From positions 5,981,991-6,018,082 of the forward strand of contig NC_057752.1 in assembly GCF_004010195.1 (NCBI RefSeq): a stretch of 36,092 nt of DNA, written 5' to 3'. The number at the start of each line of letters is the position of its first letter. Position 1 is the stretch's first letter. Source of the stretch: Chiloscyllium plagiosum (taxonomy: Eukaryota). The notes under the pieces were generated by a model. That model ran no database searches and was not told where the DNA came from. It worked only from the letters and a program-made list of their open reading frames with translations. The translations under genes were made by a program, and so were the position numbers. Shown piece after piece: positions 6,666-34,164 of this stretch.

Positions 6666-6709
6666 TAAAAGACAAGCAGAAGACATTGAGACATGAATTT
6701 AAGTGATTA

Positions 6710-7015
6710 TTAGACTGTGTGATTAATGATGTGTGCAGCCTCAGTCACATTGTAAACCAGCTTTGAGGCTGCAGGTTCTATCACAGGCATATTCATTTTC
6801 ACATTTGTTTTGTTGTTGATAACAATGAGAGGGTTCAGATTTGATAGGATTTCCTCATTGACAGAGATTCCATCTAAGTACTGTTTCAGAAGTTGCCGGA
6901 GACGTCTGTTCTCCTGTAGCAAGGTATGTTTCTCTTTCTGCAAGACAATCTGGTCCAACTGAACCTTATTATAACGCTTCCAGAATTGTTCCAGAGTCAC
7001 ATAGTCCATCATTGC
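6710..7015 (-). CDS. CCDC65: CCDC65/DRC2 coding exon 8 (last), includes stop
   Basis: Acceptor tttttttAAG|; AMMDYVTLEQFWKRYNKVQLDQIVLQKEKHTLLQENRRLRQLLKQYLDGISVNEEILSNLNPLIVIN...HTV*; the FWKRYNKV and LLKQYLDGIS motifs are typical of DRC2. Confidence 0.95.
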   Translation of the reverse strand, partial: AMMDYVTLEQFWKRYNKVQLDQIVLQKEKHTLLQENRRLRQLLKQYLDGISVNEEILSNLNPLIVINNKTNVKMNMPVIEPAASKLVYNVTEAAHIINHTV

Positions 7016-7231
7016 CTTAAAAAAAGACAAAGTGTAAATTTACTATACAATAGAATCTAGGAAAAGGCATTATTTGCAGCAGATCCAGGAAATGAATTCC
7101 CCTGTAAGAAAAATCACATCATTTTGTAGTCAAATCCCAATTTGGATCAATTTCAGCTCTGGTTCCAGGCAAATATTCAAGACTTGACTTAAAATGAATT
7201 TGTCACTTATCTCAGTGAGTTCTTATGCCTA

Positions 7232-8424
7232 TGAGTTTTTTGACAATTTGTAGCTTAGGTTGAGGTTCTGGATGTAAGCTTGCTTGCTGAGCTGAAAGGT
7301 TCGTTTTCAGATGTATCGCCACCATACTAGGTAACATCATCAGTGAGCCTCTGGTAAAGCGCAGGTGTTATGTCCCGCTTTCTATTATGTGTTTAGATAT
7401 CCTTGGGTTGGTGATGTCAGTTCCTGTGTTGGTGATGTCATTTCCTGTTCTTTCTCTCAGAGGGTGGTAAATGGGGTCCAAGTCAATGTGTTTCTTGATA
7501 GAGTTCCGGTTGGAATGCCATGCTTCAAGGAATTATCATGAGTGTCTCTGTTTGGCCTATCCTAAGATGGATGTGTTGTCCCAGTCAAAGTGGTGTCCTT
7601 CCTCATCTATATGTAAAGATACTAGTAATAGTGGGTCATGTCTTTTTGTGGCTAGTTGATGTCCATGTATCCCGGTGGCTATTTGTCTGCCTGTTTGGCT
7701 AACGTAGTGATTGTTACAGTTCTTGCATGGTATTTTGTGAATGACGTTCATTTTGCTTGCTGTCTCCACAGGGTCTTTCAAGTTCATTAGCTGCTGTTTT
7801 AGTGTGTTGGTGGGTTTGTGGGTTATTATGATGCCAAGGGGTCTGAGTAGTCTGGCAATCATTTCCAAGGTGTCTTTGATGTAGGGGAGAGTGGCTAGGG
7901 TTTCTGGACGTGTTTTTTCTTATTGATTGGGTTTGTTGCTGAGAAATCGGCAGACTGTATTCATTGGGTACCCATTCTTTTTGAATACACTGTATAGGTA
8001 ATTTTTCCTCTGCTCTGCTTAGTTCCTCTGTGCTGCAGCGTGTGGTGGCTCACTGAAATAATGTTCTATTGCATTTCCATTTGTGGGTGTTGGGATGATT
8101 GCTTCTGTAGTTCAGTATTTGGTCCGTATGTGTTGTTTTCCTGTAGACGCTGGTTTGAAGTTCCCCATTGGCTGTTTGCTCTACTGTGACATCTAGGAAT
8201 GGCAGTTTGTTGTTGTTTTCCTCCTTTTTCGTGAATTTTATGCCAGTAAGGATATTATTGATGCTCTTGAAGGCTTCCTTTAATTTGTTTTGTTTAATGA
8301 TGACAAAGGTATCATCCATGTAGCAGATCCAAAGTTTGGGTTGGATGGTTGGCAAAGCTGTTTGTTCGAGTCTCTGCATTACTGTCTCTGCTATGAACCC
8401 TGACACCAGAGATCCCATGGGTGG
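7232..8424 (-). mobile_element. Penelope-like retroelement 3' portion (RT C-terminal half, GIY-YIG endonuclease, pLTR), degraded
   Basis: Minus ORFs MGSLVSGFIAE..YMDDTF..LPFLDV..VYRKTTHTD (PLE-type RT) and IHKIPCKNCNNHYVSQTGR..IHGHQ (GIY-YIG with CxxC); mutated hammerhead core at 7307-7346. Confidence 0.9.
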
Positions 8425-8431
8425 GAACCCA

Positions 8432-8800
8432 ACGGAACACCCATGGGACCTCCGACACCAGGGTTCTTAGCAGAGGCAGTAATGTCGAGACTCGAACAAA
8501 CAGCTCTGCCAACCCAAACTTTGGGTCCACTACATGGATGACACCTTTGTCATCACTAAATGAAACAAATTAGAGGAAACCTTCAAGACCATTAATAATA
8601 CCCTTACTGGCATAAAATTCACAAAAAAAAGGAAAAAGAACAGGAACTGACATCACCAACCCAAGGAAATCTAAACACATAAATAGAACGTGGGACATAA
8701 CACTAGTGCTTCATCCGAAGGCTCACTGATGATGTTACCTGGTATGGTGACAAAACGTCTGAAAACGAATCTTCCAGCTCAGTGAGCAAACTTACATCCA
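8432..8800 (+). mobile_element. Inverted, internally deleted second copy of the same Penelope-like element
   Basis: 8440-8635 is the reverse complement of ~8220-8424 (RT); 8640-8800 is the reverse complement of ~7270-7427 (3' end with hammerhead-like core at 8726-8759). Confidence 0.85.
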
Positions 8801-8804
8801 CAAG

Positions 8805-9171
8805 TGACAATGGTCATTGATGTTAAACAGCTTTATTAAACAGATGGGATCCAAGCTATACGAAAGAAGGAGAAAGTTGAAAATCACACAACACTAGGTT
8901 ATAGTCAAACAGGGGGTTTATTTGAAAATACAAGCTTTCAGAGCACTGCACCTTCGTCAGGTAACCAGATAAAGGAACAGCATTCCAAAAGCTTGTATTT
9001 TCAAATAAACCCCCTGTTGCACTATAATCTGGCATCCTGTGATTTGTAACTTTGTCCACCCCAGTCCAACATCGGCACCTCCACATCATAAACAAGGTGA
9101 CATAGCGATCACTGTTAACCATGGGTGTTAATCAATTAAACAACCACACAGCCTCAGGCAATGCAGCAACA
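8805..9171 (-). repeat. ~145-bp LTR-like repeat, copy A (interrupted by a hairpin element at ~8874-9086)
   Basis: On minus it begins TGTTGCTGC, ends ATTGTCA and has AATAAA near the end; direct-repeat partner at 9806-9950. Confidence 0.65.
8874..9086. mobile_element. Short Penelope-derived hairpin (inverted-repeat) element
   Basis: AAATCACACAACACTAGGTTATAGTC...TTTATTTGAAAATACAAGCTTT mirrored by AAAGCTTGTATTTTCAAATAAA...ACTATAATCTGG; degenerate hammerhead core on minus (CTGACGA...GAAAGCTT). Confidence 0.75.
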
Positions 9172-9551
9172 TTGGAATGCTTAACTGTGCTAAACAAGAG
9201 CTCAATTTTAACCCCTCATTTCACTACAGTATTTTACAATATGTTGATTATCACAATTCCGTCTAATTTTCTTTGCAGTCCAACTGGACGGACGTAATAT
9301 CCTAAACTCAAAGGTTACAGAAATTAAATGCAGCATGCAATCTTGTGAGCTGAATCTCTTTTTTTTTTGGAGGTAAACCCTTCGCACATCTACCAGATAC
9401 AAATTCTACTGTGCCTATTCACCTCACCCAAATTATATCTTACTCCACCCATTCCTACCCTCATCCACACCTTACTTTAGTCAATTCAGCTTCCCAATAC
9501 ATTTTGACCTAAGCAAACCTGTCTTTGAGTTTGCGTTTGTCCATTTCTCAC

Positions 9552-9704
9552 CTCAGCAAGCTCTTCACATGGCTTCACCATCATCAAATGCTCAACTTTT
9601 TTCTCTTCTTCCGGAGTCAGAGAGGAGGCATAGAATGGGAGAACTTTCTCTTCTTCTGTTTCCAGTTTCCTGCACATTTCTGCCATCTTCAGTACATGCT
9701 CACC
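9552..9704 (-). CDS. CCDC65: CCDC65 coding exon 7
   Basis: tctAG| GEHVLKMAEMCRKLETEEEKVLPFYASS...EELAE |GTGAGA; 153 nt, phase 0/0; the CRKLETEEEKVLPFY motif is typical of DRC2. Confidence 0.95.
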
Positions 9705-9805
9705 CTAGACACATCAAATGAGCAAGCATTCACCAGGTGAAGAACCACAATTATTCAAGATTTTACTCCAAAAGGATAACAGTCATAAGAACTCACTAAG
9801 ATGAA

Positions 9806-9950
9806 TGACAATGGTCACTGATGTTAAACAGCTTTATTAAACAGATGGGATCCAACATACACTAAACAAGGAGACACTGATTACTGTGAACGATGGATGG
9901 TAATCAATGAATGAAACATCCACACAACTTCAGGCAATGCAGCAGCAACA
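9806..9950 (-). repeat. ~145-bp LTR-like repeat, copy B (uninterrupted)
   Basis: TGACAATGGTCACTGATGTTAAACAGCTTTATTAAACAGATGGGATCCAA nearly identical to 8805-8854; remainder aligns with 9088-9171. Confidence 0.65.
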
Positions 9951-10701
9951 CCTCTTAAACAGAGACCATTTTACTTGGTGAGGACTGATACATTGATAAA
10001 ATGTAACCTGGTGACCATACGGAATTACTTTGTGAGTTGTTCCTCACATGATTGGTAAGATGTGCCATGTTGAAGTTATGCAGAGTTAATGGCGATAGGC
10101 ATCATCACACCCATCATGTTGTTGCTAAAACGTACATAAAATAGGCTAGACTTTTCAGGAGAGAAAATGTACTTCTTAAATCAGTTGAACAGAACAAACA
10201 TGAGATAAACAGAAGTAATCTTACAAACTGAATTATGGCAAAGTGCTTATAGGATAAATATTTTGGTGCTTTGCTTCATTGCATTTCAGTATAGCCAAGG
10301 TGTTTCTCCCTGCTACTCCTCATTCAAGCAATTTACCCTCCTGTTTCTCATTCAATTTTTTTTTCTCTGTTACAAACCTTGATCTTCATCCTTAGCTTCT
10401 GCATGGAGCAACATTGCATGTTTGGTGATGTCCCCTAGCTCCACTTCCTGCTTCTGTCTTTCTCAATGTTGCTATTCATACAGATTTGATTTGTGCTGTC
10501 AATGTTAGGGACACCCTATGTTATCATCACTACTGCCAACAAGGCCACTGCAGATTCACGAGGAACAGATAAATTATAGTCTGGCTTCTGAGAACTGCAC
10601 AGATTAATCAAGTAGGCTTTCTGCTGTCCACTCATGTTAATGAACATGCGGGATGAATTTGCACCTTTTTTACATTTTATCGAGGGGACTTGTGACTTTA
10701 C

Positions 10702-10920
10702 CTTATCACAGATATCCTTCAGTGTTTTGATGGCAGCATTACTCTCTACCGTTAGTTTGACAAGTCGCTCGTGCTCACATGCTCGGAGGTAATTCATCTG
10801 GCTTTTCTGCATCAGAAAATGCTGCTTAATTGTTTCCTTTTCGTCCCGTAATTTTTTGTTCTGTGCCTCACACTTTCGTGAATTAACTGCTATCTTGACC
10901 TTCAGTGTTGCTATTGTATC
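10702..10920 (-). CDS. CCDC65: CCDC65 coding exon 6
   Basis: aacAG| DTIATLKVKIAVNSRKCEAQNKKLRDEKE...TLKDICDK |GTAAAG; 219 nt, phase 0/0, coiled-coil composition. Confidence 0.93.
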
Positions 10921-11050
10921 CTGTTGGTAAAATAATAAATAAATGGAGCATGTCGAACTTCCAGTGATCAGTGTAGAGATTAAACGCTACACTAATATTT
11001 TAGGAACTCAGAACTCAGGCACATGCCGAGGCAATATCAAAATTGAAAAG

Positions 11051-11205
11051 GTCAGAAGTCACACGTCAGACGACGAAGGAGCAGAGCTCCAAAAGCTTAT
11101 GATTTCAAATAAACCTTTTGGACTATAACCTGGTGTGCTGTGACAAGGTCGTCTGACGTGTGACTTCTGACCTTGTCCACCTCAGTCCAACACCAGCACC
11201 TCCTC
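11051..11205. mobile_element. Short Penelope-derived hairpin element with 15-bp TSD
   Basis: GGTCAGAAGTCACACGTCAGACGAC ... GTCGTCTGACGTGTGACTTCTGACC inverted arms; TSD ATCAAAATTGAAAAG at 11036-11050 and 11206-11220. Confidence 0.8.
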
Positions 11206-11770
11206 ATCAAAATTGAAAAGTGCAGGATGGAAAATGAAGTCATTGAGAAAGTAGTGATGAGGTGACACCAAGCTTGAGTTGGAAAGCTAAAGATAACACA
11301 CAAACAGATGGAGACAGCAACACAGTTTTGAGGTGCCGATTTCACACACAATTATTCTCCAAACCTTTCCCACTAGGAGCACCTGGTTCCTCATGATTTT
11401 CCAGCCATTAAAATTAATTTACCTCCGATTCACCAATATATTAAACTCCACGTGGGCAGTGCTAATTCATAAAATCTACCCTTAGATTTCAATAGTGAAG
11501 ATTCCATGGGGAATAATTTTGTGAGCTCCAAATATTGTTCAAAGGATCTAAAATACACAAAACTGAAAGGGACAAGAAAGGCTACAACAGACAGAAAAAG
11601 AGGGTCATTAATATTCTAAACAACAATGTACAAATCCAACCTCAGTAAAGTTGCAGCTGTAACAATGCAAGGTTAATAAGTGAGTGTATTTTTCCAAGTA
11701 CTGTCAAATTAAACTCTGCAATAACTGTGCTACGATACAACAGGTACAATGAGTATTTAGTTAGACCTAC

Positions 11771-11968
11771 TTGCATCTTCTGCAGCTTTCTCATCTGCAT
11801 TTCAATCTCTTTTGCACTCTTTTCATCTCGTGCTTTCAGTGTTTCAAATGCAATTTTTCGATCCTCAGTTGAGTCAATATAGTTCTTCAATGCATGTTGA
11901 AACTGCAGCCACAAATCTTCCACTAATCCCTCCAGATTAACTCGGAGTGAATGCTTCTCCTCCAGACT
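11771..11968 (-). CDS. CCDC65: CCDC65 coding exon 5
   Basis: ttt[74 protein letters not shown]; 198 nt. Confidence 0.95.
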
Positions 11969-14094
11969 CTAAATGCAGCAAAAAACACAACTGGTCTCAT
12001 TAAGATTTAGGTGCTGTTTGCTTGAGCGAATTAGAAATAATAGAAATGACATAAATGTTCTTCGCAGGAAACCATCCTAGCTTCTGCAATAATTTCAGCT
12101 TGATTGCAACTTTTAAGAATAATGAAAATACAATAATTCAGTCTTAGTTCTTACAGTAAAATGCTAGTTTGATGAAATGGTCTTCACATGACAATGACCT
12201 TGGGCCAGATTTTGGACTATGTTAATTTTATTTTCATCAATAAACCGGTGTATAAACAGCAGCAAGAGATATCGACTTCATCTCTCCATATTGCAACTAT
12301 GAGTCTTGCTACCATTTAAAAATCTAAAGAACAAAAACACTTGCTCAATTAGGCTGGCTAAGAACTTCTTGAGGCCATTCATAGGAAACACACACAGAAT
12401 TTCATTGAGCTGTGTAAACAAGAATGAATTAGAATGAATGCAAACAGTCTGTCACATTCACAGGTGAATATGAAAAAGGAGTTCACAGTCCTATAGCCTG
12501 GGCAAACTGCCCGTTGACATCTTGCAACGCAGCAGAATGACAGAGCACTGTGGATATGTCGAAGGCATAGAAAGTGTGCAGAAATAGTTACATTTATATT
12601 CTACCTCAATGTGCTGCTACTTTTCAAGACAAATTATAACTTACTAGAATTCATTCCCAGTTCTTCAGGTTAACCCAGAGTTCAGATGCTCTGTGACATA
12701 AGACCACAACATATATTGCACTGTGCCCAATCGATGGAAAGGTCTTTTCACAGTTTGGTGCTGAGCCAGTACTGCCACAACTGGATGGTCAAATCCTTTA
12801 TTATTTCTATGAGTTAATTGGTTTGTTTGTTGTTTGAAGATTTGAATTACAGGCCCTTTGTGATTGGCATGTTCTTTCATTATTGCAAGGAATATGCCAC
12901 ATATGCAATGAAGCTGTTCACAATCAGAATATCACTATCCTGAAATCTCATGCCCTCCAAGGTACATGCGAAGGGTGACTAGTTTTATGATTTTTTTTTT
13001 GGCAGATTAAAAGGCTTTTGTAAAAAAGACCCTCTTTCCTTCCAAGTTTCCCAATCCCCTACTAAAGCTGTTAACTCTCATTAAGATTCTGCTCCACAGG
13101 CACCGGTCACTTTCATGGCTATTGCATAGTAGTGAACTAGTCAAATGTGGAACACCGCACCTCCACATCAAAGACCTTCTTGAGATTTCCCTGGAGGTTC
13201 GGAAGCAGTAGTTGAGCCGTTCTGCTCAGAAAATTCCCAGGTCCACAGTCCATGATCCACATCTGGGTTGTTTCACATCCAGGGTTTGGAAAGACAAAAA
13301 TCAGTTTCTGTATCCAGATTCTGATCATTACTCTTGTGTTTATTCATTTGTGGAATGTATGCATCACTGGCAAGGACAGCACTTACTATTTTCGAGATGG
13401 TAGCCGTTTTCTTAAATGGCTGTATCCTGTGTGACATAGGCACAATGAAAGTGCTCACTTTCCTGTAGTGGTGTAGCAAAACTGAGTGACGTGCTGGGCC
13501 ATCTCAGCATTCTAGATGACAATTACAAGTCAATGCGTGGATCTGAATCACATGTAGTACAGACCGGTGAAAGATGGCAGGTTTCCTTCCCCAGAAGACG
13601 AGTAAACCAAATGGGATTTTACAACAAACAAAAAAAAAGACAGAGGGTATTTTTTCCAATAATACAGAACTTTGATGATGACCATTATGGTGAACAGCTT
13701 TTTTTTTTCTTTAAAATCCAGTTGCAATAATTAATTGAATTTAAATTCCCCAGATGTTACCGTAGATCAAATAATTAGTGCAGGCCTCTAGATCACTAAT
13801 CCAGTAACATTACTGCTACCATAACCCCTAATCAGTAAACACTTGCTAGAAAGTAAAGGTGCATAGATATTGGCTGTGAACAGAACTATACCCCACAATA
13901 CTAGCTGGACTTCATACATGAAAAATGCCTGTTTTTACTCAAGCAGTCTGTCTTCAGAAGGGAATAACAGTTTCAGTATGAAAACAAAAGAGCATTTACC
14001 ACTTAGAAGTCTATGGCAATGTTTAGACCCACAAACAAACACACACATCTGTGTCAACCACAGCTCTATTAATTTTAAAATAGTTATGAAGAGG

Positions 14095-15505
14095 AAAAAA
14101 AAACTGGTCCATAGGTTAAAGTTCTAAATTGGGGCAAGGCGAATTTTGATGGAATTAGACAGGAGCTTGCAGGGGTTGATTGAAGTAGTTTGTTTGCAGG
14201 CAAAGGAATCTCTGGCAAATGGGAGGTCTTTAAAAGTGAGGTAACTAGAGTTCAAGGTCTATATGTTCCTGTGAGAGTGAAGGACAAAGTCGGCAGGAAT
14301 AGAGAACCCTGGAAGACAAGAGATATTGAGGCTTTCACCAGAAAAAAGGAATTGTGGCTCAGGCAAGCGGGATCAAGGGAATTCCTGGAGGTATACATGG
14401 AATACAGGAGTTTACTGAAGGAGGAAATCAGGAAGGTGAAAAGGGGGCACGAGACAGCCTTGGCTGAGAAGATTTAGGATGAATCCAAAAAGGTACTTGA
14501 AGTCTATTAAAGGAAAAAGAATAACGAGAGAGAAAATAGGACCCCCTCAAGGACCAAAGTGGACATGTATGTGTAGAACCACAGGAGATGGGGGAGGTTC
14601 TCAATGAATATTTCTCCTCTGTGTTTACTATGGAGAAGGAGATAAAGATTTTGGAACTTGGGGAGGTTAGTGGTGATATCTTGGGGACAGTCCATATCAC
14701 AGTAGAGGTGGTGTTGAATGTATTAATTAGAATGTACGAAGGTGGATAAATATCCTGGTTTTGACCAGATATATGCAAAAGGCTAGAGAAGAAATTGCGA
14801 GGGCCCTAGCTGATATTCTTGTATCATCATTAGCCATGGGTGAAGTCCTGGAAGACTGGAGGGTAGCGAATGTTGTGCCATTATTCAAGAAAGGCTGCAA
14901 AGAAAAGCCTGGGAACTATAGACCAGTAAGATTAACATCTGTGGTTGGTATGTTACTTGAGAAGATTCTGAGAGAGAAAATGCACATGCTTTTGGAAAGA
15001 TAGGGTTCCAACTCGGCACTGCCTCTTGAACTGTCCCATCTGTCCACCTTCCTGCCCATCTGTCCACTGCACCCTATCATCATCACCCCTCATCTTCATC
15101 TATGTATTGCCGTCCAAGCTACCTTCCCCCCAGCCCCACTCCCCTCCTATTTATCTCTCAGCTCCCCTCCACCCACTAACATTCCTGATGAAGATCTTAT
15201 GCTCGAAACGTCAACTCTCCTGCTCCTCGGAAGCCACCTGACCGGCTGTGCTTTTCCAACACCACACTTTTTGACTCTGATCTCCAGCATCTGCAGTCCT
15301 CACTTTCTCCTTGACTAAGAGTAGTCAGCATAGCTTTGTGAATGGGAGATCATGCCTCACAAATTTGTTTGAGTTCTTACAATGATGAAGTGACCAGGAA
15401 AGTTGACGAGGACAAGCTGGTAGATGTAGTCTATATGGATTTCAGAAAGGCCTTTGATAAGGTTTGGGCCAAAGGGCCTGTCTCCATGCTGTAGGACTCT
15501 GTGTC
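14095..15505 (+). mobile_element. CR1 LINE ORF2 fragment with internal deletion, interrupted by a Penelope-derived piece (~15006-15310)
   Basis: ORFs with EDWRVANVVPLFKKGCKEKPGNYRPVRLTSVVG; resumes with SQHxF / DVVYMDFRKAFDKV-like sequence, then jumps to the CR1 3' tail GGGCCAAAGGGCCTG. Confidence 0.9.
15006..15310 (+). mobile_element. Penelope-derived pLTR fragment with hammerhead-like core
   Basis: C-rich tract, then CCTGATGAAGATCTTATGCTCGAAACGTC (15185-15212) and a TCTCCAGCATCTGCAGTCCTCACTTTCTCC end; same family as 20515-21020. Confidence 0.75.
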
Positions 15506-15669
15506 TACGTCTCAATGACTCAAGGCTTGATCTTCTCCATTCTAGAAATCTTATGATAAATATTGAAAGTCATAGATTTTGTTGGTTACCAGCTAGTTCC
15601 TGTATCTTTGAGAGCACTTGGTGTCCATACCCATTCGTCATTCTATTGGTGGGGTCCAAGCTTCCTTAC

Positions 15670-15808
15670 CTTGTTTTTGAGGTCATCCCTTGTGCTGTTG
15701 AATTCTTGTCGTGCTTCGTTTGCAACTTCACCAAAGATCTGGTCCATAGCATACATGATATCCTCCAGATTGGTCATCTCTTGCTCATGCTGCACAATCA
15801 TCTGCTTT
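15670..15808 (-). CDS. CCDC65: CCDC65 coding exon 4
   Basis: gacAG| (R)KQMIVQHEQEMTNLEDIMYAMDQIFGEVANEARQEFNSTRDDLKNK |GTAAGG; 139 nt, phase 2/0. Confidence 0.95.
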
Positions 15809-16057
15809 CTGTCAAGATGCAGATTGAATTCAACTATCACGAGAATAACAGCCACCTTCTTATCCAAAATACACAGAACAAATCACACCATTAAACTTTC
15901 CTCAGTTATGTAATTTAGAAAGAGCATTAAGCAATTGAAAATCAATCTCAGTTTTTAAATTGGAAATGAACCACAGGTATTGTGGAAAGAGCTATAACTG
16001 CCATTTTAAAATTCAGTAAATGCAACATCTCCTTGTATTCCAAAACTGAACACTGAC

Positions 16058-16227
16058 CTTTCGGCATCAAACTCTTCTTTCAGTGACGCCAACTCTGCCT
16101 CAAACTCATTCTCTATTATGGTGAGTCGACTGCGTTGCAGATCCACCAGCTTATCCACGTTCTGAACATGGTTCCGCAGAGCTGTTGCATACTGTTCCTC
16201 TGCCTCTTCCAAATCTTTTGTTAAAGC
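16058..16227 (-). CDS. CCDC65: CCDC65 coding exon 3
   Basis: tccAG| ALTKDLEEAEEQYATALRNHVQNVDKLVDLQRSRL...EEFDAE(R) |GTCAGT; 170 nt, phase 0/2. Confidence 0.95.
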
Positions 16228-17085
16228 CTGGAAGACACATAAGAAACAGATTACTGATTCCTCTGCTGGCTCACTGAGTTTAATTAGTACACTCAATTTG
16301 ATGTAGCTGATTGGAGTTCCTCGCCGCTACATTCCCCCACATCATGTTACAGTAGTATGAGCACTACAAACTGGGTATGATCCAGGTTTGGGATCCCTGG
16401 TTCCCAATCTCAGTAACAGCATTAGTGCTGTGTACTGAGTGGATATGGTGACTGGGAACTCACTCTGGGATACTGTTTGCTAGTGCAAGTACTTGCAGTG
16501 TAACAGTAGCCAAGGCTTTGCAAATGTTGCATTTGTCCTATCAGACAGCGAATGGGATGTGCACTGCAGGCAAAACAGAGTGAACATGTTGCTGTTTCAG
16601 TTATGGTGTTGAAGGGAAGATTACGTGGCCATCAGCAATCTGAATGCTGACGATGAGAGAATGGCAGCTAAACAAAAATCACCATTTCGTACAGAATGGA
16701 AATCTCTCACTTTAACAGAAAGGCAGTCTCCCGACAGACTATTCACTGCTCAAATCTTTATCCACCAACAGATACTCGTACATCTGAATATTGTTTGACG
16801 ACCCTATGCAGGCGCAAGATTATCGTACATGAATTGTTAAAATAACATGGTCATACAGTATATGCACACAGTTCCAACAGTGAGGGTTGATGTTGTTACA
16901 TGGTGCAGCCAGTAGGAGGCCAAGCTTGCAGGAAATGCTGGAACCTTTGTGCCTGTGCAGCTGTAAGTTAGCCTGTCTCTTTAATGGAGGAGTGAAAATG
17001 TGAAACATATTTGGCCTGTTCTCTGAACAGTTCATTATGTCTCAAGGCACAATCCTATGACAGTGGCAATTTCTCTTCATCTTAC

Positions 17086-17253
17086 CCTGATCACACCATC
17101 TTTCCGGTCCACAATTCTTTCAAAGGTTTGGCTCAGGATCTCAATGTCCTTCCGGAGTTCTGCAGCTTTTGCCTCCCGCATCACAGTGCGCCACTTCTCA
17201 TTTAGCTTCAGCGTGTTCAGCCGGGTGTTGTGCTCTTCCTTGGACAGTTTATC
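17086..17253 (-). CDS. CCDC65: CCDC65 coding exon 2
   Basis: tac[64 protein letters not shown]; 168 nt; WR..LR([12 protein letters not shown]) is characteristic of CCDC65. Confidence 0.96.
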
Positions 17254-17384
17254 CTGTAGGGTAAAGAACACTCGTGATGAAGCAGAAAGAGTATGGCAAA
17301 TCAAACCACAATTGCATTACTCAAACCACGAAATAAATACAGGACACATCCCATGGTTACAGGCTGAGTATTCTCTGGCATGTA

Positions 17385-17960
17385 ATTCACCTATTGTCCC
17401 TCAAAAGCCTGTTGACCACCCCCAAGGGACAGGTCAGGAGTGTGATGGAATACTCCCCCACTTGCCTGATGAGTGCAGCTCTAACAGCAGTCAAGAAGAC
17501 CAATACCATTTAGGACAAAGGAGTCCACTTATGGGCATCCCATCTAACACCTTCGACATTCATTCCCTCCACTACCAATGCACAGTGGCAGCAGTGTATA
17601 CCTCTATAAACTTGCTTTCTGCTACTGTCTGATGCCACCCTAGCAACCGACAAAATAGCATCTCCCAAACCAGTGTTATCGACCACCTAGAAGGACAAGG
17701 GCATCAGAAACACAGGCACAATACTTTCTACAGAATTCCTCCTCTCCCCTGCCCCCAACCAAACACCATTCTGTCTTGGAATTAGATGGCTGACCCTTTA
17801 CTGTTGCTGGGTCAAAATCCTGGAACATCCTTCCCAACAGTATTGCAGTGTACCTACATCCTCAGGACTGCAGTAGTTCAAGCAGGCATCGCACAAGCAC
17901 CCTCCAAATGGCAATTAGGGATGGACAATAAATAGCCAGCAACACTCATGAACGAATAAA
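17385..17960 (+). mobile_element. LINE 3' fragment (CR1/L2-type clade), degraded
   Basis: GGAGTGTGATGGAATACTCCCCACTTGCCTG... homologous to 28060-28545; codes a remnant of VMEYSPLAW..LKKL..IQ. Confidence 0.75.
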
Positions 17961-18010
17961 TATGAAAATGACATGTTTGGGAAAAAAACAATTAGATTTG
18001 AAAGAAATAC

Positions 18011-18139
18011 CTTTAAGAATTGATTCAGCATATCCTCTTTCTTTTTTTGCCTCTCTTCCTCCTCCAGCATTTTTTGCTGCATATACAGCAGTTGCTCCTC
18101 CTCGGTCATTTTGGTCGCTTTTTTAGATTTTTTCGGCAT
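18011..18139 (-). CDS. CCDC65: CCDC65/DRC2 (dynein regulatory complex subunit 2) first coding exon; eight exons total 1482 nt = 493 aa
   Basis: ATG at 18139, MPKKSKKATKMTEEEQLLYMQQKMLEEEERQKKKEDMLNQFLK |GTATTT; all eight exons join in frame with GT-AG introns. Confidence 0.95.
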
Positions 18140-22399: not shown

Positions 22400-22720
22400 G
22401 AGAGGCACTACACAAATGCAATTTTGTCTTTAGGACGCCGCCGCCGCCGCCAGCAGAACTCCGCGAGGTCTCTATCCCTCGGGCCGCCTGGACCCTGTCT
22501 CTGCAGACAGTGGGAGCCTCTCACCCCCTGTCCTCCTCGACCTTCCGATTCTTCGTCTCGCAGCAGTCCCTGGGGAGACTACACACCGCGGCTGTCCAAC
22601 GGTAACCTAGCAACCGCGCGCTCTCGCACGACCTCAGCAACCGCCAACGAGCAATCACTGGAACAAGAGGGAGCCTCGAGCCGGTACCTTATCCTTCAGC
22701 AGCCCCTTTTCGGTCTGGAG
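22400..22720 (-). promoter_or_regulatory. CpG/GC-rich island, probable CCDC65 promoter and non-coding first exon
   Basis: Densest CpG stretch in the window, (GCC)5 at ~22437, GC box GGGGCGGGG at ~22347, candidate minus-strand donors GGG|GTGAGA (22525/22524) and CAG|GTAAAA (22333/22332). Confidence 0.65.
22602..22614. promoter_or_regulatory. RFX X-box
   Basis: GTAACC-T-AGCAAC fits GTNRCC-N(0-3)-RGYAAC; extra half-site AGCAAC at ~22636; lies upstream of a motile-cilia gene. Confidence 0.75.
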
Positions 22721-22764
22721 GATTCATCTCATTAAGTTTACCTATTCCACATGAAAAAGTACAA

Positions 22765-22876
22765 AGTTAAAAATCACACAACACCAGGTTATAGTCCAAC
22801 AGGTTTATTTGGAAGCACTAGCTCCGAAACTTTTAACTTTGTACACTCCAGTCCAATACCGGCATCTCCATAGCAC
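22765..22876. mobile_element. Short Penelope-derived hairpin element, truncated
   Basis: AAAGTTAAAAATCACACAACACCAGGTTATAGTCC...TTTTAACTTTGTAC; direct repeat GAAAAAGTACAA at 22753-22764 and 22877-22888. Confidence 0.75.
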
Positions 22877-24422: not shown

Positions 24423-26050
24423 CTTCCAATTAAACCTGTTGGACTATAACCTGGTGTTGTGTGATTTTTAACTTTGTACATCTCTGGATAGAGAATGTAA
24501 GGATAGGGTTTAATGAATAAGTGGGTGAGCCTCTGAGAAGTGCTGGTTGTTCTTGTGCCCTCAACAGTCATGTGATTGAGACTCTGCTAGAAGATTGGAT
24601 CAGCTCTAGAGCAGTGGGGTCTGCTGCTAAATCATCATGGTTGTAAGTACTGTCAGAAGAAACATTTAGAGATCTGGCTTGAACTTAGCACCACATTTTA
24701 CTGTGCTTGAGTTATCAGTGGAGAAGATGGCACTTTTCTAAGAATCTGAAGAATAACGAAACGTCTGAGAAACCATGAGGCAAAAATCTTCAGCATCATT
24801 CCCAAGTACTTTATGTTGAAGACTTAACCCAAATAGGTCTATACTCAGATATGGCAGCCATGTCCACACCACCGAAGCACCTCTTATCCCTTCCATAGTT
24901 CTTCGAAGCTGTTGAAGTACCTATTCAGGTAAAGATGAGGGTTATGGAAAATGCACTTCCACTTTTACGGAACAGCCCCAGGTCTCCATTCCAAGCAGCT
25001 ACGGCACCATGATTGGTAATCTTTTTAATATACACAGTGGGCCTCATTGTGAATTATGTCCTGAGTGGACAAAGTATTGATCAAACCTGATTTTCAGTCA
25101 GTCCTAGCAGCTCTTGTTTTCGGTCCAAGAGGAAGCTTATTATTGAATGCACCAGAAGCCAGGGGAATCAGCAGACTCCTTTATTAATAAGTTATATAGG
25201 TTGGTCAATTATTGTGACTGAGGCACATTGAAGGATAAGCTTATTTGAAACAAAATAGTGATTAAGGTCCATCACAATTAACTCTGATTCTTTTGCAGTC
25301 TTAGGAAAATGGAACATGAGAGCACGCAGCCCTGAATATAAGGCAAGCCAACCAAAGATTAGTGATGATTTTGTTAAGTCTTCAACTTAAAGTATTCGGG
25401 AAGGATTCTGAAGATTTTTGCCACACAGTTCCTCGGCCTTGCTTTGCGGTTCTTCAGATTGTCAGAAAAGCACCATTTGCTCTAGATCAGTGTCTCCACC
25501 AATCTCACCATGTTTACATGTGCTTGAGATACATTCAGGTCCAACCTCAAAATGTTTCTTCAAAACAGTGCTTATGAATATGATGATTTGGCTGCAGACC
25601 CCTCTGCTCTAGAGCTGATCCAACCTTCTAGCAGAGTCTCAATCACATGACTCTTGAGAGCACAAGAACAACCAGCATACTCAGATTTATCCACTTATTC
25701 ATTAAACCCTCTCCCAACAATCTCTCTCCAGAGCAGAGTTGTGATTTTGAAAACGACAGGGGAACTCTCTGGTAACAGTAGTTCTTTGTTCACTGGGCAA
25801 CCTCCCAATGTAAATAAATTCCCATTAGCGTTCCAGAACTATGTCTCTCAGATTGTTTTGGAACATAAAATCACCATGGCGATAGAAATACCTAGAAATT
25901 AATCTCACACCGTTCAGTCACACAGAAACCCACATGCCACCAGTTCAGAATTAAAAATTCCAAAATAGATGATATTAAAATATATATTAATTACACTGCA
26001 CACATCACAACTGCTTGAGGATTGTCCACAATTTGATTTGTCCACAGTTA

Positions 26051-28545: not shown

Positions 28546-29307
28546 TGTGAAACAAAGAATTAGCATCTGTCAAAACCTGTCGGAACAGATTGATTGAAAA
28601 TTACTACTGGCTCCTGTGGGCCAGCAAATTGAGAGGATAACTGCTTTTCTCCCCTACAATATTCAAATCCTTCATAAGGGTGAGGATTATTGCACTGCCA
28701 TTAGCTTCAGGCACAGGGAAATAGTGAGAAATGTGACCATTGTTAATACCAAGTGCTTCAAGTAATAATGTCTATTAATATTTAGAAGCTGGGGAAAAAA
28801 ACACTATTTTTATTTAGGGGTCAATTACGATGAATAATTCAGAGTTGCTGATAGAAAAAGTGGATTAAAAGCTTGTGTTAGTTTGTATTGTTTAGTTTTC
28901 TACTGCGACAGCAGATTAACTTCAGTTGATTCGAAGGGGCCTCGGGGACCACTTTGTGAGATTTATTGAGCTAATAACACACCGAGTGAATCCTGGATGT
29001 CATAGAAATGTGACTCAGAGGCCCCAGTCCCTGTCCTGCAACTCTTAACAGCACTCCCAGCGCGCCGGTTAACCGCTCTAAAGCGCTTAATGGCAACGAA
29101 TTTGCAGTGGTCTTACCCACTCTTGGCGTTTAAATCACTTCCCTAAATACTGCAAGTGGCTTTCCTGTTGTTTTGCATCGCCTCTGCTTTATTGCCTGCT
29201 CCATTTGCAGACATGCCCCTGCGGGCTTCGGAGAAGGTTTAAAAAAGGCACGTTGCAGGAGGTTGAGGGCCATAGCACACTTCTTCCTCAGCAGTTGGCT
29301 ACCCACA

Positions 29308-29451
29308 ATGATGAACAGGGAAGTGCTCCTAGCGTGCTGCCTTGTGCTGGGCTTGTTGCAAGCAGCTACTTGCACTGCCGAGGGGCAGTTCGCCACCATC
29401 TACCAAGCAGACCAGGAGGACGGGCTCCCCGTTCGCATTCTGGCAGCTGTG
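29308..29451 (+). CDS. NPFF: Neuropeptide FF (PQRFamide) precursor exon 1: signal peptide and pro-region
   Basis: MMNREVLLACCLVLGLLQAATCTA (hydrophobic signal peptide) EGQFATIYQADQEDGLPVRILAAV |GTAAGA; 144 nt, phase 0; TTTAAAA TATA-like element at 29238. Confidence 0.88.
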
Positions 29452-29779
29452 GTAAGACTCCTTAAGCTCTTTGTAAACTTTTCCATGCTGCTGCTGATCA
29501 GAGTGTGTTTGTCCCTCCTTGCCCTCTCGCCTCGAGTCTCCATTCCATGGGACATCATTACCGATGAATGTTGGTCAGACCATCTGGTGATCATTGCTTG
29601 TGGGGTCTTGCCAAGTTTCCATTACAACTTTAAACAAAAACGCTTAATTGGCCGTAAACTGCTTTTTGTGTATGTCTGGGTGGGTAGAATTTTGAGGTCA
29701 TGCTATAACAATGCAATTCTTTTGCCAAAGGGGTTGAAGAATTGGCTTTGTCCTGTTGTGCCTGCAGCCTCCAACATCT

Positions 29780-29897
29780 TTCTCTCTCACTCACACACAC
29801 TCACTCACACACACACTCACTCACTCACTCTCTCACTCTCACTCTCACACTCACACACACACACACACACACATAGACACACACACACACAGACACA
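29780..29897. repeat. Compound (CA)n/(CT)n/(CACT)n microsatellite in NPFF intron 1
   Basis: Directly visible. Confidence 0.95.
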
Positions 29898-30833
29898 GTC
29901 TGGCCCCTAAGGGAGTGTGTCAGCTCTAGCTAAGACCCACTCTTGCCTGACCAACTCTGTCCATTTTACAGCAGAGGTGCAGTACAGTAACCTGTGGACC
30001 AGGCTTGAGGGGCTGAATAGCCTACAGTGTTCCTAAGTTACTTTCAGCAGGGCTGCCTGACTCAAAGTCCTTCTCTGAGTCATGACAAACACTTGTAGCC
30101 TTGGTAAGCACAGCCCGAATATTGACACTGGGTCCGTGGGCCGCAGTGCTGTATATATCTATTTCGGAAAGCTATAGACCAGCTTTTCCCTGTGATCTAT
30201 GTGAGTGCAGCCGATGTCCAAACATAAAGCAACATTTTCCACATGCTTATGTTCACAAGAGCCGACATCATTCATCTTCAGAAGCACTTCAAAACTGTCT
30301 TGCAGCTGTCTGCACCACATAATGGTCTCGGGACAAGTACGACAAACACACAGCTATCTTCCAGGACGACACATGTTTTTTGCTGTATCGAATGATCACT
30401 CTATAGCAATGTCCAGGTGTCTCTGTAATGTTTCAGCACATTCCAGATAGTCATGGTGCAATACATACATGCTCCTTGTGTCCCTAAACACTTGAAGTGC
30501 AGAAGCGAATTGCAGCAGTTTGATCATACAATATGCATCGATATGCACAGAGTGTTGGAGACACACTTGGAATTTCTGCACATCTGTCTCACCAGAGTAC
30601 CTACTGTAAAGGGTGTTCAAGGCATTGTCATCTTCATTAAGACACATTACAGTTTAGCTTTGAATCATTTAATCTGTTCTAATTGAGAAGGCGTCGTTAA
30701 GAAACAAAGCACAATTCTCCTTGTGACCTTTTTCAATGTTGACGTCAAATGCATGTGACGAGAATGTTGCCATTTTGAACCTTGTATCCACTCTGCTGTG
30801 ATTGGTAATTACTCAAATCTGGCCCCTTGACAG

Positions 30834-30958
30834 GACGGGGAAGGGAACAATGCGAGGAGACTGGCAGACGACCACACAATGAGCTCACCAATCAACTCTA
30901 TCGTCCACATGCCTGGAAAGTTTGGCAGAAGTCCTTCCTTTGCCTTCCAGCCACAGAG
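30834..30958 (+). CDS. NPFF: NPFF precursor exon 2
   Basis: ccccttgacAG| DGEGNNARRLADDHTMSSPINSIVHMPGKFGRSPSFAFQPQ(R) |GTAGGT; 125 nt, phase 0/2; GRSPSFAFQPQR parallels mammalian GRSQAFLFQPQR. Confidence 0.92.
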
Positions 30959-31290
30959 GTAGGTTTCTCCCAGGTAGGCTCAGGGGGTGGCAGCGGTGGT
31001 GGGGGGTGGGGTGGGGGGAAGTGGGATGAGAGGTTGGCGCTGTGTTTAATGGTGTGATTTTTGACTGCAGCTTGTTACCCCATTCAGTTCAAAGTTACTC
31101 CAAGCAGCTCATGAACACACTGGCAATAAAGAATAAAAGCAAAATACTGCAGATACTAAAAATCTGAAACAAAGGCAGCAAATGCAAAAGAAACTCAGCA
31201 GGCCTGGCAGCATCTGTGAAGAGAGAAATAGAGTTAGCATTTAAAGTCTGGCATGACTTTTCTTTAGAACTTCAAACCAGTTCTGGTGAG

Positions 31291-31508
31291 TAGAGTCACA
31301 CTGCACGGAAACGGACCCTTCAGTCCCACTCTTCCATGCTGACCAGATATACTAGATTAATCTGGTCCCATTTGCCAGCACTTGGCCCATATCCCTCGAA
31401 ACCCTTCCTATTCATATACCCATCCAGATGCCTTTTAAATGTTGTAATTGTACCAGCCTCCACCACTTCCTCTGGCAGCTCATTCCATACACGTACCACC
31501 CTCTGTGT
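31291..31508 (-). mobile_element. CR1 LINE 3' end
   Basis: Nearly identical to 1395-1620; TQRVVRVWNELPEEVVEAG. Confidence 0.9.
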
Positions 31509-32974
31509 TGAAAACAGCATCCAAAATGGTTGACAGGAGAGGATTACAGCTCTAAGTATTGCTGTTTTTTGAGGTTGTTTTCAGGGCTGGAGCTGATTTC
31601 CTCGCTTTCTTGGAGGCATAATTACTGTTTTTATACATTCTGCATTGTTTTTGGAATTTTTATTTAAAAGATCAAACACAACGAGACTTTAAATGGGAGG
31701 AAAGAGAGAGAGCAGGAGATGAAGTTTCGTGAGAGCGATCAGGTGGTAAGGTCAGAGATCGAAGAATTGCAAATAGCTCTAGAGATCAACAAGCAAACAG
31801 TGCACTTTCACAGCTGCCTGACTGTGAAATTGCAAATGCTTCTCTGGAGTCATAACAAACTCAAAACGTTAACTCTGTTTCTTTCTCCGCAGATGCAGCC
31901 AGCATTTGTTTGTTTTAGATTTCCAAATGTCACGACACAATGGTCCATATGAATTCACAATACACTACACCATCTAGCCTTATCACTGCATAAGAAGACA
32001 ATAAGTAGCACAATTAATGTCTGCTGGAGAGGGCCAGAGAAAAGATTAGGAGATAAGGAGAACTGTTTCACATTTTCTTCCTTTTCTCCTGGACTAGAAC
32101 AAGAACACAGGTCAATTAAGGAAGCTTACGAACCTTAGCAGAGCAATTAGGATGCTGATCTGAAAAATAAGGTGTCCCCACTGAGGCAACGCTAGAAACG
32201 CTGCAGATGGTGACAAATTACATGGAAACTTTTCTTTGCAAAGAGTTAACTGGGCACTTAAACATTGATAGGGGAGGCACGTTCTGCCTGCACCCATTTT
32301 AGGGAACACCATGACAAGCACCCACCTCCTATAGCTGAGAAAGAAGCCAGGCAAAGGGACAGACCGAGGAAGGAAAATATGCCAGAGGTTCTCAAACTGA
32401 GGTTCACAGAATGGCGGGAGGGGGAGCAGTCTGTCAAGATTGTCCAGGGTCTGAAAATGTTGACTGAGCATAACTTGGCTGATGAAAGTGGCTGGAGGTG
32501 GGCCCAGGGATGAGCTGGGAATGTGATGCAAGGTGGGGTAACTGTCCTGTGTAGTGAAGAACTTGCAGGAGGGATGACAAGGGCAAGAAAGATTATGTGG
32601 ACGTAAAATATCTGTAGGTAATGCTGGTCTTCTTCAAAACCTTAATAACAGTACTTGTGTATGTCACATATTATATGGTATGATGAGATTTGTAATTTAG
32701 ATGTGGAAGGGGGTCTATGTTTAGTAATCTATTTGACCGGGGTTCTTTAATCAAATCAGCGACGTACAGAACTAGAAACAGAAATGACTAAGGCAGAGAG
32801 AAACATGGATAGAGATAGAGACAGAGATGGGGCTGCGAGATGAAGTGCAGGATTGGAGAGGCTGCATAAATGCTATCAACTGAAAGGGGCGTTGAATGTT
32901 TTGTTACTCTGTTGAAAGCTGCAATGCTGCCCCTGGACTCTGAGTTCTGGGAGAAAGCTGGAGCATCTAAATCC

Positions 32975-33215
32975 AGCTTCACAACCCTATGAGATCTTTG
33001 TGCTCCTCCAGTTTCAGCCTCTCAAGCATCCCCTGATTCGCATCACTCATATTGGCGGCCGTACCATCAGCTGCATGGGGCTCTAAACTCTGGAATTCCC
33101 TCCTCTCCTGAAAATCAATATTAGTGACCAAATGTTGGGTTACTAGTCCTAATAACTCCTTGTGTGGCTTTGTCAAACCTTGGAGTGGTTTACAATGCTA
33201 TATAAATGCAAGTAA
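32975..33215 (+). mobile_element. L2-like LINE 3' fragment, degraded
   Basis: CTCTGGAATTCCCTCC and a GCTATATAAATGCAAGT tail; homologous to the reverse complement of 34165-34450. Confidence 0.55.
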
Positions 33216-33290
33216 GATCAAAATACATGATGATATCCTGGATTCTGTTGTAAACTGACTCCGTTCTTCCTGCAACTGTCTTTGTTTCAG

Positions 33291-33420
33291 GTTTGGCCGC
33301 GAAGCTCAAGCCTTCTCGGACTACAGCACTGAAGGTCGGATACGTTCCAGAGGCTGGGATGTCATCCCGCCTCAGTTCTGGAACATGGCAGTCCCACAGC
33401 GTTTCGGAAAGAAGAAATAA
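33291..33420 (+). CDS. NPFF: NPFF precursor exon 3 (completes NPFF, encodes NPAF-like peptide); full precursor 132 aa
   Basis: tttgtttcAG| (R)[42 protein letters not shown]; FWxxAxPQRFGKK is the NPAF signature; phase matches exon 2. Confidence 0.95.
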
Positions 33421-33697
33421 CAGCTCCTGAAAGGAGGCAAACAGTAGCATTCCCCGAAAAACATCCCCACCTCAATCACGACCAAATGTTTAAGACCCGA
33501 CAACAGAGTGAGGCTTTTTATCACATTGGTCCTTTAGCCCAAGTACAAAATATTTTAGTCCATCAAACATCTCCAAACAGTATGCTTAGAAATGAATTCA
33601 TTCACTTGTAAAACTTATAATTGTCTTTACTAATAATTAAAGAGAATATTTAATCAATGTTATTATCCAGATTGTTAATTTTATTCTGAATTCTATA

Positions 33698-33703
33698 AAT
33701 AAA
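33698..33703 (+). terminator. Probable NPFF polyadenylation signal
   Basis: AATAAA ~280 nt after the stop in an AT-rich UTR, followed by a T-rich tract; an ATTAAA variant occurs at ~33636. Confidence 0.55.
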
Positions 33704-34164
33704 TCTTTGTGAACTCTATAATTGTATCTTTTTAACATGGGAATCGCTACTGTTGCCACGTTAGGAAACATATGCAGGCATTACTGGATTCTGATACAGG
33801 TCTGTGCACCAGTGATAGGTCGTTGGCAAAATGTTGCAGTTTTGGGTTTTTTAAAAGCATAATTTTCTTAATTAAATGGAAGGTTTATTAAGTTCCTTTC
33901 GATTTTTCACTTTTCATTGAGATCATAGTAATCCAGACCTAAATTATAACCCCTGATTTTGGTCAGTTGCAAAGTGGAATTGAGATATAATCCATAGTTT
34001 TGACATTTAAATAATTTATGGGAAGGTTTCTCTCCGAACTCTTGCTAACCCTTCTTCAGCAGTTGCAATAGCCTCTTGACATTAAATAGATTCTTGAATC
34101 TAACAGAATAAACCGATACCTTATATCAGTTTCATGCAAAACACGAGGCTGAGTTTTCAGACTT

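Follow-up and report, generated by a model that had tools for sequence, protein, structure and literature searches.

The NPFF precursors of lamprey and hagfish have been reported to yield three peptides (PMC4062910, PMC6691130), and a 2019 paper states that three peptides come only from the lamprey and hagfish precursors and two from those of other species (PMC6691130). In these agnathans the third PQRFamide directly precedes NPFF, and a segment of the npff gene of the bamboo shark Chiloscyllium plagiosum, here called site 1, occupies the same place and shares with the lamprey peptide the frame H-x-P-x-basic-F-G-R. The shark segment differs in that Gln-Arg has become Gly-Lys and in that the single Arg bounding the agnathan peptide is Asn, a 21-residue peptide being predicted instead from a new dibasic site. 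Degenerate peptides are also known from GnIH precursors, where human RFRP-2 (LPLRS-amide) and coelacanth LPXRFa-2 (LPLRL-amide), like the shark segment, have kept the amidation signal but only part of the RF motif (PMC6200920). Unlike shark site 1, those peptides belong to a paralogous gene and have a changed Phe rather than a changed Arg. The synthetic analogue [Lys7]NPFF has the same Lys-Phe-amide end as the shark peptide, but it keeps the Gln and the FLFQ N terminus and was studied at human and rat receptors only (PMC4058657).

Within the literature searched, which covered few subscription journals and did not extend to sequences in figures, no description was found of a site-1 peptide from a shark, chimaera or lungfish, and the exact motifs PGKFGR, HMPGKF, HSPQRF, HVPQRF and PEKFGR were absent under the same coverage. 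The site-1 product represents a known peptide in derived form. We think it probable (roughly 0.6) that the segment encodes a decaying third RFamide that would be released as a weak by-product of NPFF production.

The npff gene of the bamboo shark

The window, the whole stretch of 36,092 nucleotides that was analyzed, contains npff, and a splice model of three coding exons gave a precursor of 132 amino acids (Table 1). When the model precursor was compared with the NCBI model from Chiloscyllium punctatum (P0018), 3 of 132 residues differed, and the C. plagiosum protein P0001 was 100% identical over exon 2. Exon 3 scored 48 bits against the Pfam NPFF family (PF15085), for which the cut-off is 27, and a profile search with that family returned one matching place in the C. 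plagiosum genome. The gene encodes two peptides of the form PQRF-Gly-basic, NPFF and NPAF, and the joint spanning NPFF was present in RNA. NPFF genes are typically linked to the HOXC cluster (PMC4133751). The shark gene belongs to the NPFF family and is unexceptional within it.

Table 1. Features of the bamboo-shark npff locus, in window positions
Feature	Position	Strand	Evidence
Putative upstream exon, an alternative start to P0001 in the NCBI model, with AG acceptor and GC donor	25299..25342	+	Putative link from RNA contigs
npff coding exon 1: predicted signal peptide and pro-region, 48 codons, phase-0 donor	29308..29451	+	C. punctatum P0018 N terminus, 1 difference
npff coding exon 2: site-1 peptide and most of NPFF	30834..30958	+	P0001, 100%; X1, X2 and X6 contigs, X18 reads
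Arg-Arg dibasic site, elasmobranch-specific within the data set	30855..30860	+	12/13 elasmobranchs versus 1/138 other rows
Predicted 21-residue site-1 peptide, third-PQRFamide orthologue	30861..30923	+	Translation, alignment
Lys codon AAG: ancestral Arg of RF; P4 of the Arg preceding NPFF	30918..30920	+	RNA, alignment
Gly-Arg: site-1 amide donor and N-terminal cut of NPFF	30924..30929	+	Translation, alignment
Predicted NPFF peptide SPSFAFQPQRF, interrupted by intron 2 (30959-33290)	30930..33294	+	Translation; joint in RNA
npff coding exon 3: NPFF end, spacer, NPAF (33352-33405), GKKK, stop	33291..33420	+	Pfam PF15085; RNA

RNA evidence was taken from 4 of 24 listed sequencing runs; X18 was recorded as RNA, with about 2% of its reads examined, and the other three runs were assumed to be RNA. 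Contigs from X1 and X2 spanned 30832-30956 with 0 differences, and the joint between 30958 and 33291, which the original prediction had proposed, was found in both contigs and in 8 raw X18 reads (7 starts). Sequencing error at the Lys codon was ruled out because the X1 and X2 contigs matched exactly, and by the presence of Lys in all of the elasmobranch species compared below. Use of another acceptor for exon 2 was also ruled out, as three contigs start at the AG at 30832-30833. We conclude from the X1 and X2 contigs and the X18 reads over exon 2 that both the Lys codon and the acceptor are real. RNA also indicated a poly(A) tail at about 33657 and a high-copy transcribed repeat within intron 2 (31060-31510).

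Positions 30855-30929 translate to RRLADDHTMSSPINSIVHMPGKFGR. The segment reads RR-LADDHTMSSPINSIVHMPGKF-GR and lies directly upstream of SPSFAFQPQRF, and the PGKF segment flanked by Arg-Arg and Gly-Arg signals that had been predicted was thereby borne out. A basic N-terminal cut site, at which cutting is predicted from sequence, is thus present before the site-1 peptide.

Site 1 across vertebrates

For comparison, 190 proteins were gathered by homologue searches, a profile search and cluster look-ups, one homologue listing giving the best 120 of 420 matches. The set includes 14 elasmobranch species, a chimaera, a lungfish, lampreys and hagfish; a coelacanth sequence was not found among the 120 of 420 matches listed, nor identified in another 59 matches. 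Alignment indicated PQRF-GR at site 1 in lamprey, hagfish, Callorhinchus and Protopterus, PGKF-GR in 8/8 galeomorph sharks and PEKF-GR in 2/2 squalomorph sharks. Rays read PEKT, PEKT, PEKA and PDKT before the GR, such that Phe was lost in all four while Pro and Lys were kept. Lys was therefore present in 14/14 elasmobranch species, as was a Gly plus a basic residue after the site-1 Phe position, and the site-1 product lacks a C-terminal Arg-Phe-amide throughout, ending in Lys-Phe in 10/10 sharks and in Lys-Thr or Lys-Ala in 4/4 rays. Arg was kept and Phe replaced in gar, bowfin, bichir, sturgeon, teleosts, amphibians, turtles and squamates. In bony vertebrates the degenerate site 1 (gar SQRYGR, zebrafish SQRYER, squamate VQRPGR) retains the basic P4 and the P1 Arg, as in the shark, but bony vertebrates keep the Arg and lose the Phe, whereas sharks keep the Phe and have Lys in place of the Arg.

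By this alignment, the shark segment is orthologous to the third PQRFamide that the ancestral NPFF precursor encoded, and the original placement of the segment at the ancestral third-peptide position is supported by its alignment with the PQRF of chimaera, lungfish, lamprey and hagfish. Site 1 of the chimaera (Callorhinchus milii P0178) and lungfish (Protopterus annectens P0010) is orthologous to that of the shark and aligns without gaps over the 21-mer. Unlike the shark, both have a canonical PQRF-GR, keep the internal Arg and carry RG or RS at the dibasic position; a second C. milii protein, P0056, likewise has the third PQRF-GR intact and the internal Arg present. On the aligned sequences, the intact third PQRFamide of chimaera and lungfish was missed in the original prediction, as was the loss of Phe in rays. 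The chimaera and lungfish precursors are arguably more suitable for testing than the peptide of the shark.

The accepted vertebrate tree was used for parsimony. The intact third PQRFamide in chimaera and lungfish implies that the first jawed vertebrates would have had three PQRFamides. On the same tree, Gln-to-Glu and Arg-to-Lys changes would be placed on the elasmobranch stem, a Glu-to-Gly change in galeomorphs and loss of Phe in rays; the window codons GGA and AAG would each be reachable by single-base steps. Read in this way, the aligned sequences indicate that the third PQRFamide has been lost at least three times, in elasmobranchs, ray-finned fish and tetrapods. These comparisons supply a missing piece of NPFF precursor evolution by extending the intact third PQRFamide beyond agnathans to chimaera and lungfish, and the shark form is a clear intermediate between an intact and a lost third PQRFamide.

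Changes were also noted in the other peptides of some precursors. The NPFF of Pristiophorus japonicus (P0005) reads PQRRF, the extra Arg falling at the joint of exons 2 and 3, and reflects either a model error or an altered NPFF. Ray NPFF and NPAF are also altered (FRPQRF and FEPQRF in P0023 and P0042), and the NPAF of Narcine is without Trp, in line with faster evolution of the whole precursor in rays.

The sequence HMPGKF had been likened to the (L/M)PXRF motif of GnIH/RFRP peptides. Met at -5 occurred in only 3/14 elasmobranch species, all Hemiscylliidae, and the position aligns with the PQRF of agnathans, chimaera and lungfish, indicating that the likeness is incidental. GnIH peptides end in LPXRF-amide, where X is L or Q (PMC4077772), and a GnIH-like identity was rejected as MPGKF falls outside that definition. 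Moreover, the close relatives among the matches listed were all named NPFF or NPFF-like, none being encoded by a GnIH (NPVF) precursor. A 2014 review reported that no GnIH was found in the elephant shark or skate genomes (PMC4133751), a result that does not show absence. In the C. plagiosum genome, one narrow back-translated pattern, which cannot show absence, revealed no multi-peptide GnIH-like frame; the search gave 4 matches versus 1 control match, each a single motif in a frame of 28 to 37 amino acids or out of frame. One of the single motifs, NLPLRFGR at G000:C4:92348929 (L004), lies in a 28-residue frame with no second motif within 1.5 kb and is probably due to chance.

The site-1 lysine, NPFF receptors and the new dibasic site

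P4, numbered from the Arg preceding NPFF, was basic in 163 of 166 anchored precursors, a count for which 24 of the 190 proteins were dropped because the two PQRF anchors were missing and in which rows, including isoforms and kin, are not independent. Among the anchored vertebrate precursors without the Phe, P4 was basic in 139 of 142 and Gly-Arg was kept in 73 of 142. Convertase sites may be pairs of basic residues with 2, 4 or 6 residues between them (PMC4141687). Since a basic residue persists even where the Phe is missing, the most plausible role for the Lys is as P4 of the cleavage that would free NPFF. Gly-Arg had been described as an amidation and cleavage signal. Its conservation does not point to a selected amide, as the Arg also serves as the N-terminal cut of NPFF and as Gly-Arg persists in half of the Phe-lacking precursors. 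Since this Arg must be cut to free the 11-residue NPFF, site 1 would be left ending in Gly. Taken together, the P4 counts and the convertase spacing argue that neither the basic residue nor Gly-Arg is evidence of selection for a ligand, and service as part of the NPFF cut site would explain simply why a basic residue persists after the ligand is gone.

Amides are formed from a C-terminal Gly. In the mechanism that we propose, prohormone convertases would cut after RR and after K-F-G-R, carboxypeptidase E would trim the ends, the amidating enzyme would convert the Gly, and the 21-mer amide would be released together with NPFF and NPAF. Cutting and trimming of this kind are established processing chemistry (PMC2976990, PMC4141687). 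Lys would be held since the single-Arg cut before NPFF would need a basic P4, a role that we infer from the alignment and for which Lys would suffice, whereas receptor binding would demand Arg rather than Lys, leaving the 21-mer a weak agonist at best.

Published pharmacology bears on the last of these steps. In rat spinal cord, the Ki of [Lys7]NPFF was 245 nM, versus 0.34 nM for NPFF, and the EC50 values were 1290 versus 12 nM at hNPFF1 and 565 versus 3 nM at hNPFF2, such that the Arg-to-Lys change cost approximately 100- to 190-fold in potency at the human receptors while efficacy remained about 80% (PMC4058657). In the structure of NPFFR2, the Arg of NPFF makes a salt bridge, a hydrogen bond and a cation-pi contact (PMC12069643). 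As Gln(-3) and Pro(-4) make few contacts with NPFFR2 (PMC12069643), the Gln-to-Gly change may cost little. The site-1 21-mer is therefore predicted, by analogy with data from human and rat receptors only, to be a weak ligand of NPFF receptors. That the mammalian data carry over to shark receptors is an extrapolation, helped by the retention of PQRF in shark NPFF and NPAF. The suggestion that a KF-amide might have altered NPFFR1/2 selectivity was not upheld, as Lys in place of Arg lowers potency at both human receptors (PMC4058657). A ligand of the PrRP receptor, hinted at by the Gly at -3, was also considered unlikely, as [Lys30]PrRP was non-functional (PMC4058657). Should the 21-mer be active, nature would have provided a KF-amide ligand at receptors for which Arg has been regarded as essential.

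Conservation of site 1 was compared with that of its surroundings. Among 10 sharks, mean pairwise identity rose from 0.73 in the 16-residue body to 0.77 in the last five site-1 residues (core), 0.80 in the NPFF-NPAF spacer and 0.88 at the NPAF N terminus. The shark site-1 segment is thus conserved no better than the neighbouring spacer. Phe, Lys and Pro were invariant in 10/10 sharks, and Phe was kept in both superorders. In seven full-length sharks, 20 of 49 columns of the pro-region and spacer were also invariant, making the invariant Phe unremarkable.

These observations favor decay over the retention of a working peptide. Consistent with decay, the site forms a series from PQRF through PEKF or PGKF in sharks to PEKT, PEKA or PDKT in rays, and the same site also decayed in ray-finned fish and tetrapods. 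Against it, Phe is retained in every shark, and the loss of the ancestral internal Arg together with the gain of a new dibasic pair, kept in rays by way of Lys/Arg swaps, looks like selection for excision of a 21-mer. Of the original claim that a third processable peptide is kept, the cut signals and the conserved position stood, and retention as a functional ligand fitted less well than a relic. The decaying relic that had been offered as the other option was the better fit.

One alternative is that the KF-amide is a working co-ligand of lower potency or with a leaning toward NPFFR1, kept by selection and lost only in rays, which we consider unlikely. The three invariant residues and the residual efficacy of Lys analogues would fit such a role, as would the His or Asn at -6 and hydrophobic residue at -5 (NLPGKF in Mustelus), which resemble an Asn-Leu pattern that favours NPFFR1 (PMC12069643). 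The hydrophobic -5 residue is, however, ancestral, being Val in lungfish and Phe in lamprey, and the invariance is no higher than background. A vacancy left by GnIH would also fit, as none was found in the genomes reviewed or by our own pattern, but that search was too narrow to show absence. Moreover, the potency loss of about 100-fold applies to hNPFF1 too (PMC4058657), and the same precursor would give two intact PQRFamides in equal amounts.

The cut sites themselves have changed in elasmobranchs. Lamprey, hagfish, chimaera and lungfish carry an internal Arg that bounds a short site-1 peptide, as do 111 of 145 non-elasmobranch rows; in 14/14 elasmobranchs this residue is Asn or Ser. A dibasic pair (RR, KR or KK) 21 residues upstream was found in 12/13 elasmobranchs, rays included, versus 1/138 other rows, counted in a fixed window such that indels may hide some pairs. 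The exception was Heterodontus, with Gly-Arg instead, and Heptranchias was not counted as its sequence is incomplete. With x-P-G/E-K-F-G-R in 10/10 sharks, these counts agree with the conservation expected of the RR-PGKFGR arrangement. Loss of the Arg and gain of the dibasic pair suggest, at the level of sequence, selection for cutting there. Rays keep both cuts yet lack the Phe, so the selected feature needs no KF end; candidates are excision of the pro-region and a new function of the 21-mer.

The latter case, in which the altered cut sites of elasmobranchs yield an amidated, partly helical peptide of 21 residues whose role is independent of an RF or KF end, is in our estimate doubtful, somewhat more so than a co-ligand. 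In its favor, the dibasic pair persists though shark-ray identity over the 7 residues preceding it is only 0.37, and the loss of the internal Arg and retention of Gly-Arg are universal among the elasmobranchs. Against this, shark-ray identity of the body (0.52) was lower than that of the spacer (0.59) and of the NPFF N terminus (0.63), and Heterodontus has Gly-Arg in place of the pair. Moreover, the amphipathic stretch is common to vertebrate pro-NPFF and weaker in elasmobranchs, with a hydrophobic moment of 0.42-0.66 in six elasmobranchs versus 0.81-0.83 in chimaera and lungfish, and in the Hemiscylliidae this stretch contains a Pro. The new site may merely replace a lost cut that removed the pro-region. 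A re-engineered third RFamide, with the old cut deleted and the dibasic pair added to give a shark KF-amide ligand of NPFFR1 or another receptor, perhaps a substitute for GnIH, has a similarly slim chance of being correct.

Transcripts without exon 1 and other features of the window

Exon 1 had zero depth in all four runs used, and no reads across a 29451/30834 joint were therefore obtained. Three contigs (X1, X2 and X6) instead reached exon 2 from 52 to 63 letters that map outside 29250-33750, and a match through the AG at 30832-30833 suggests that they use the exon at 25299-25342. Joining that exon to exon 2 gives a frame without a signal peptide, and the signal peptide is absent from the NCBI models P0001, P0017, P0019 and P0003. 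These transcripts and models would be compatible with a segment that is never released, whether as uncut or degraded spacer or with the exon residing mostly in transcripts without a signal peptide, but this is very improbable, as exon 1 is intact and, by inspection and homology, codes a hydrophobic N terminus, full-length models containing it exist for six sharks (C. punctatum, Stegostoma, Heterodontus, Scyliorhinus, Mustelus and Pristiophorus) and two rays, and the runs without exon 1 are of unstated tissue origin.

A CpG-rich stretch was noted at 22400-22800 (observed/expected ratio, 0.89), and the sole window match to what we take to be an X-box-like pattern lies inside it, at 22602-22614. 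The stretch may act as a bidirectional promoter from which npff transcripts without the signal peptide also arise. Farther from npff and transcribed away from it, a multi-exon gene on the minus strand (about 6700-18139) matched Pfam NYD-SP28 with 63.7 bits and NYD-SP28_assoc weakly; it is presumably DRC2/CCDC65. Inspection also indicated LINE-like fragments at 1474-2267 and 7557-8466.
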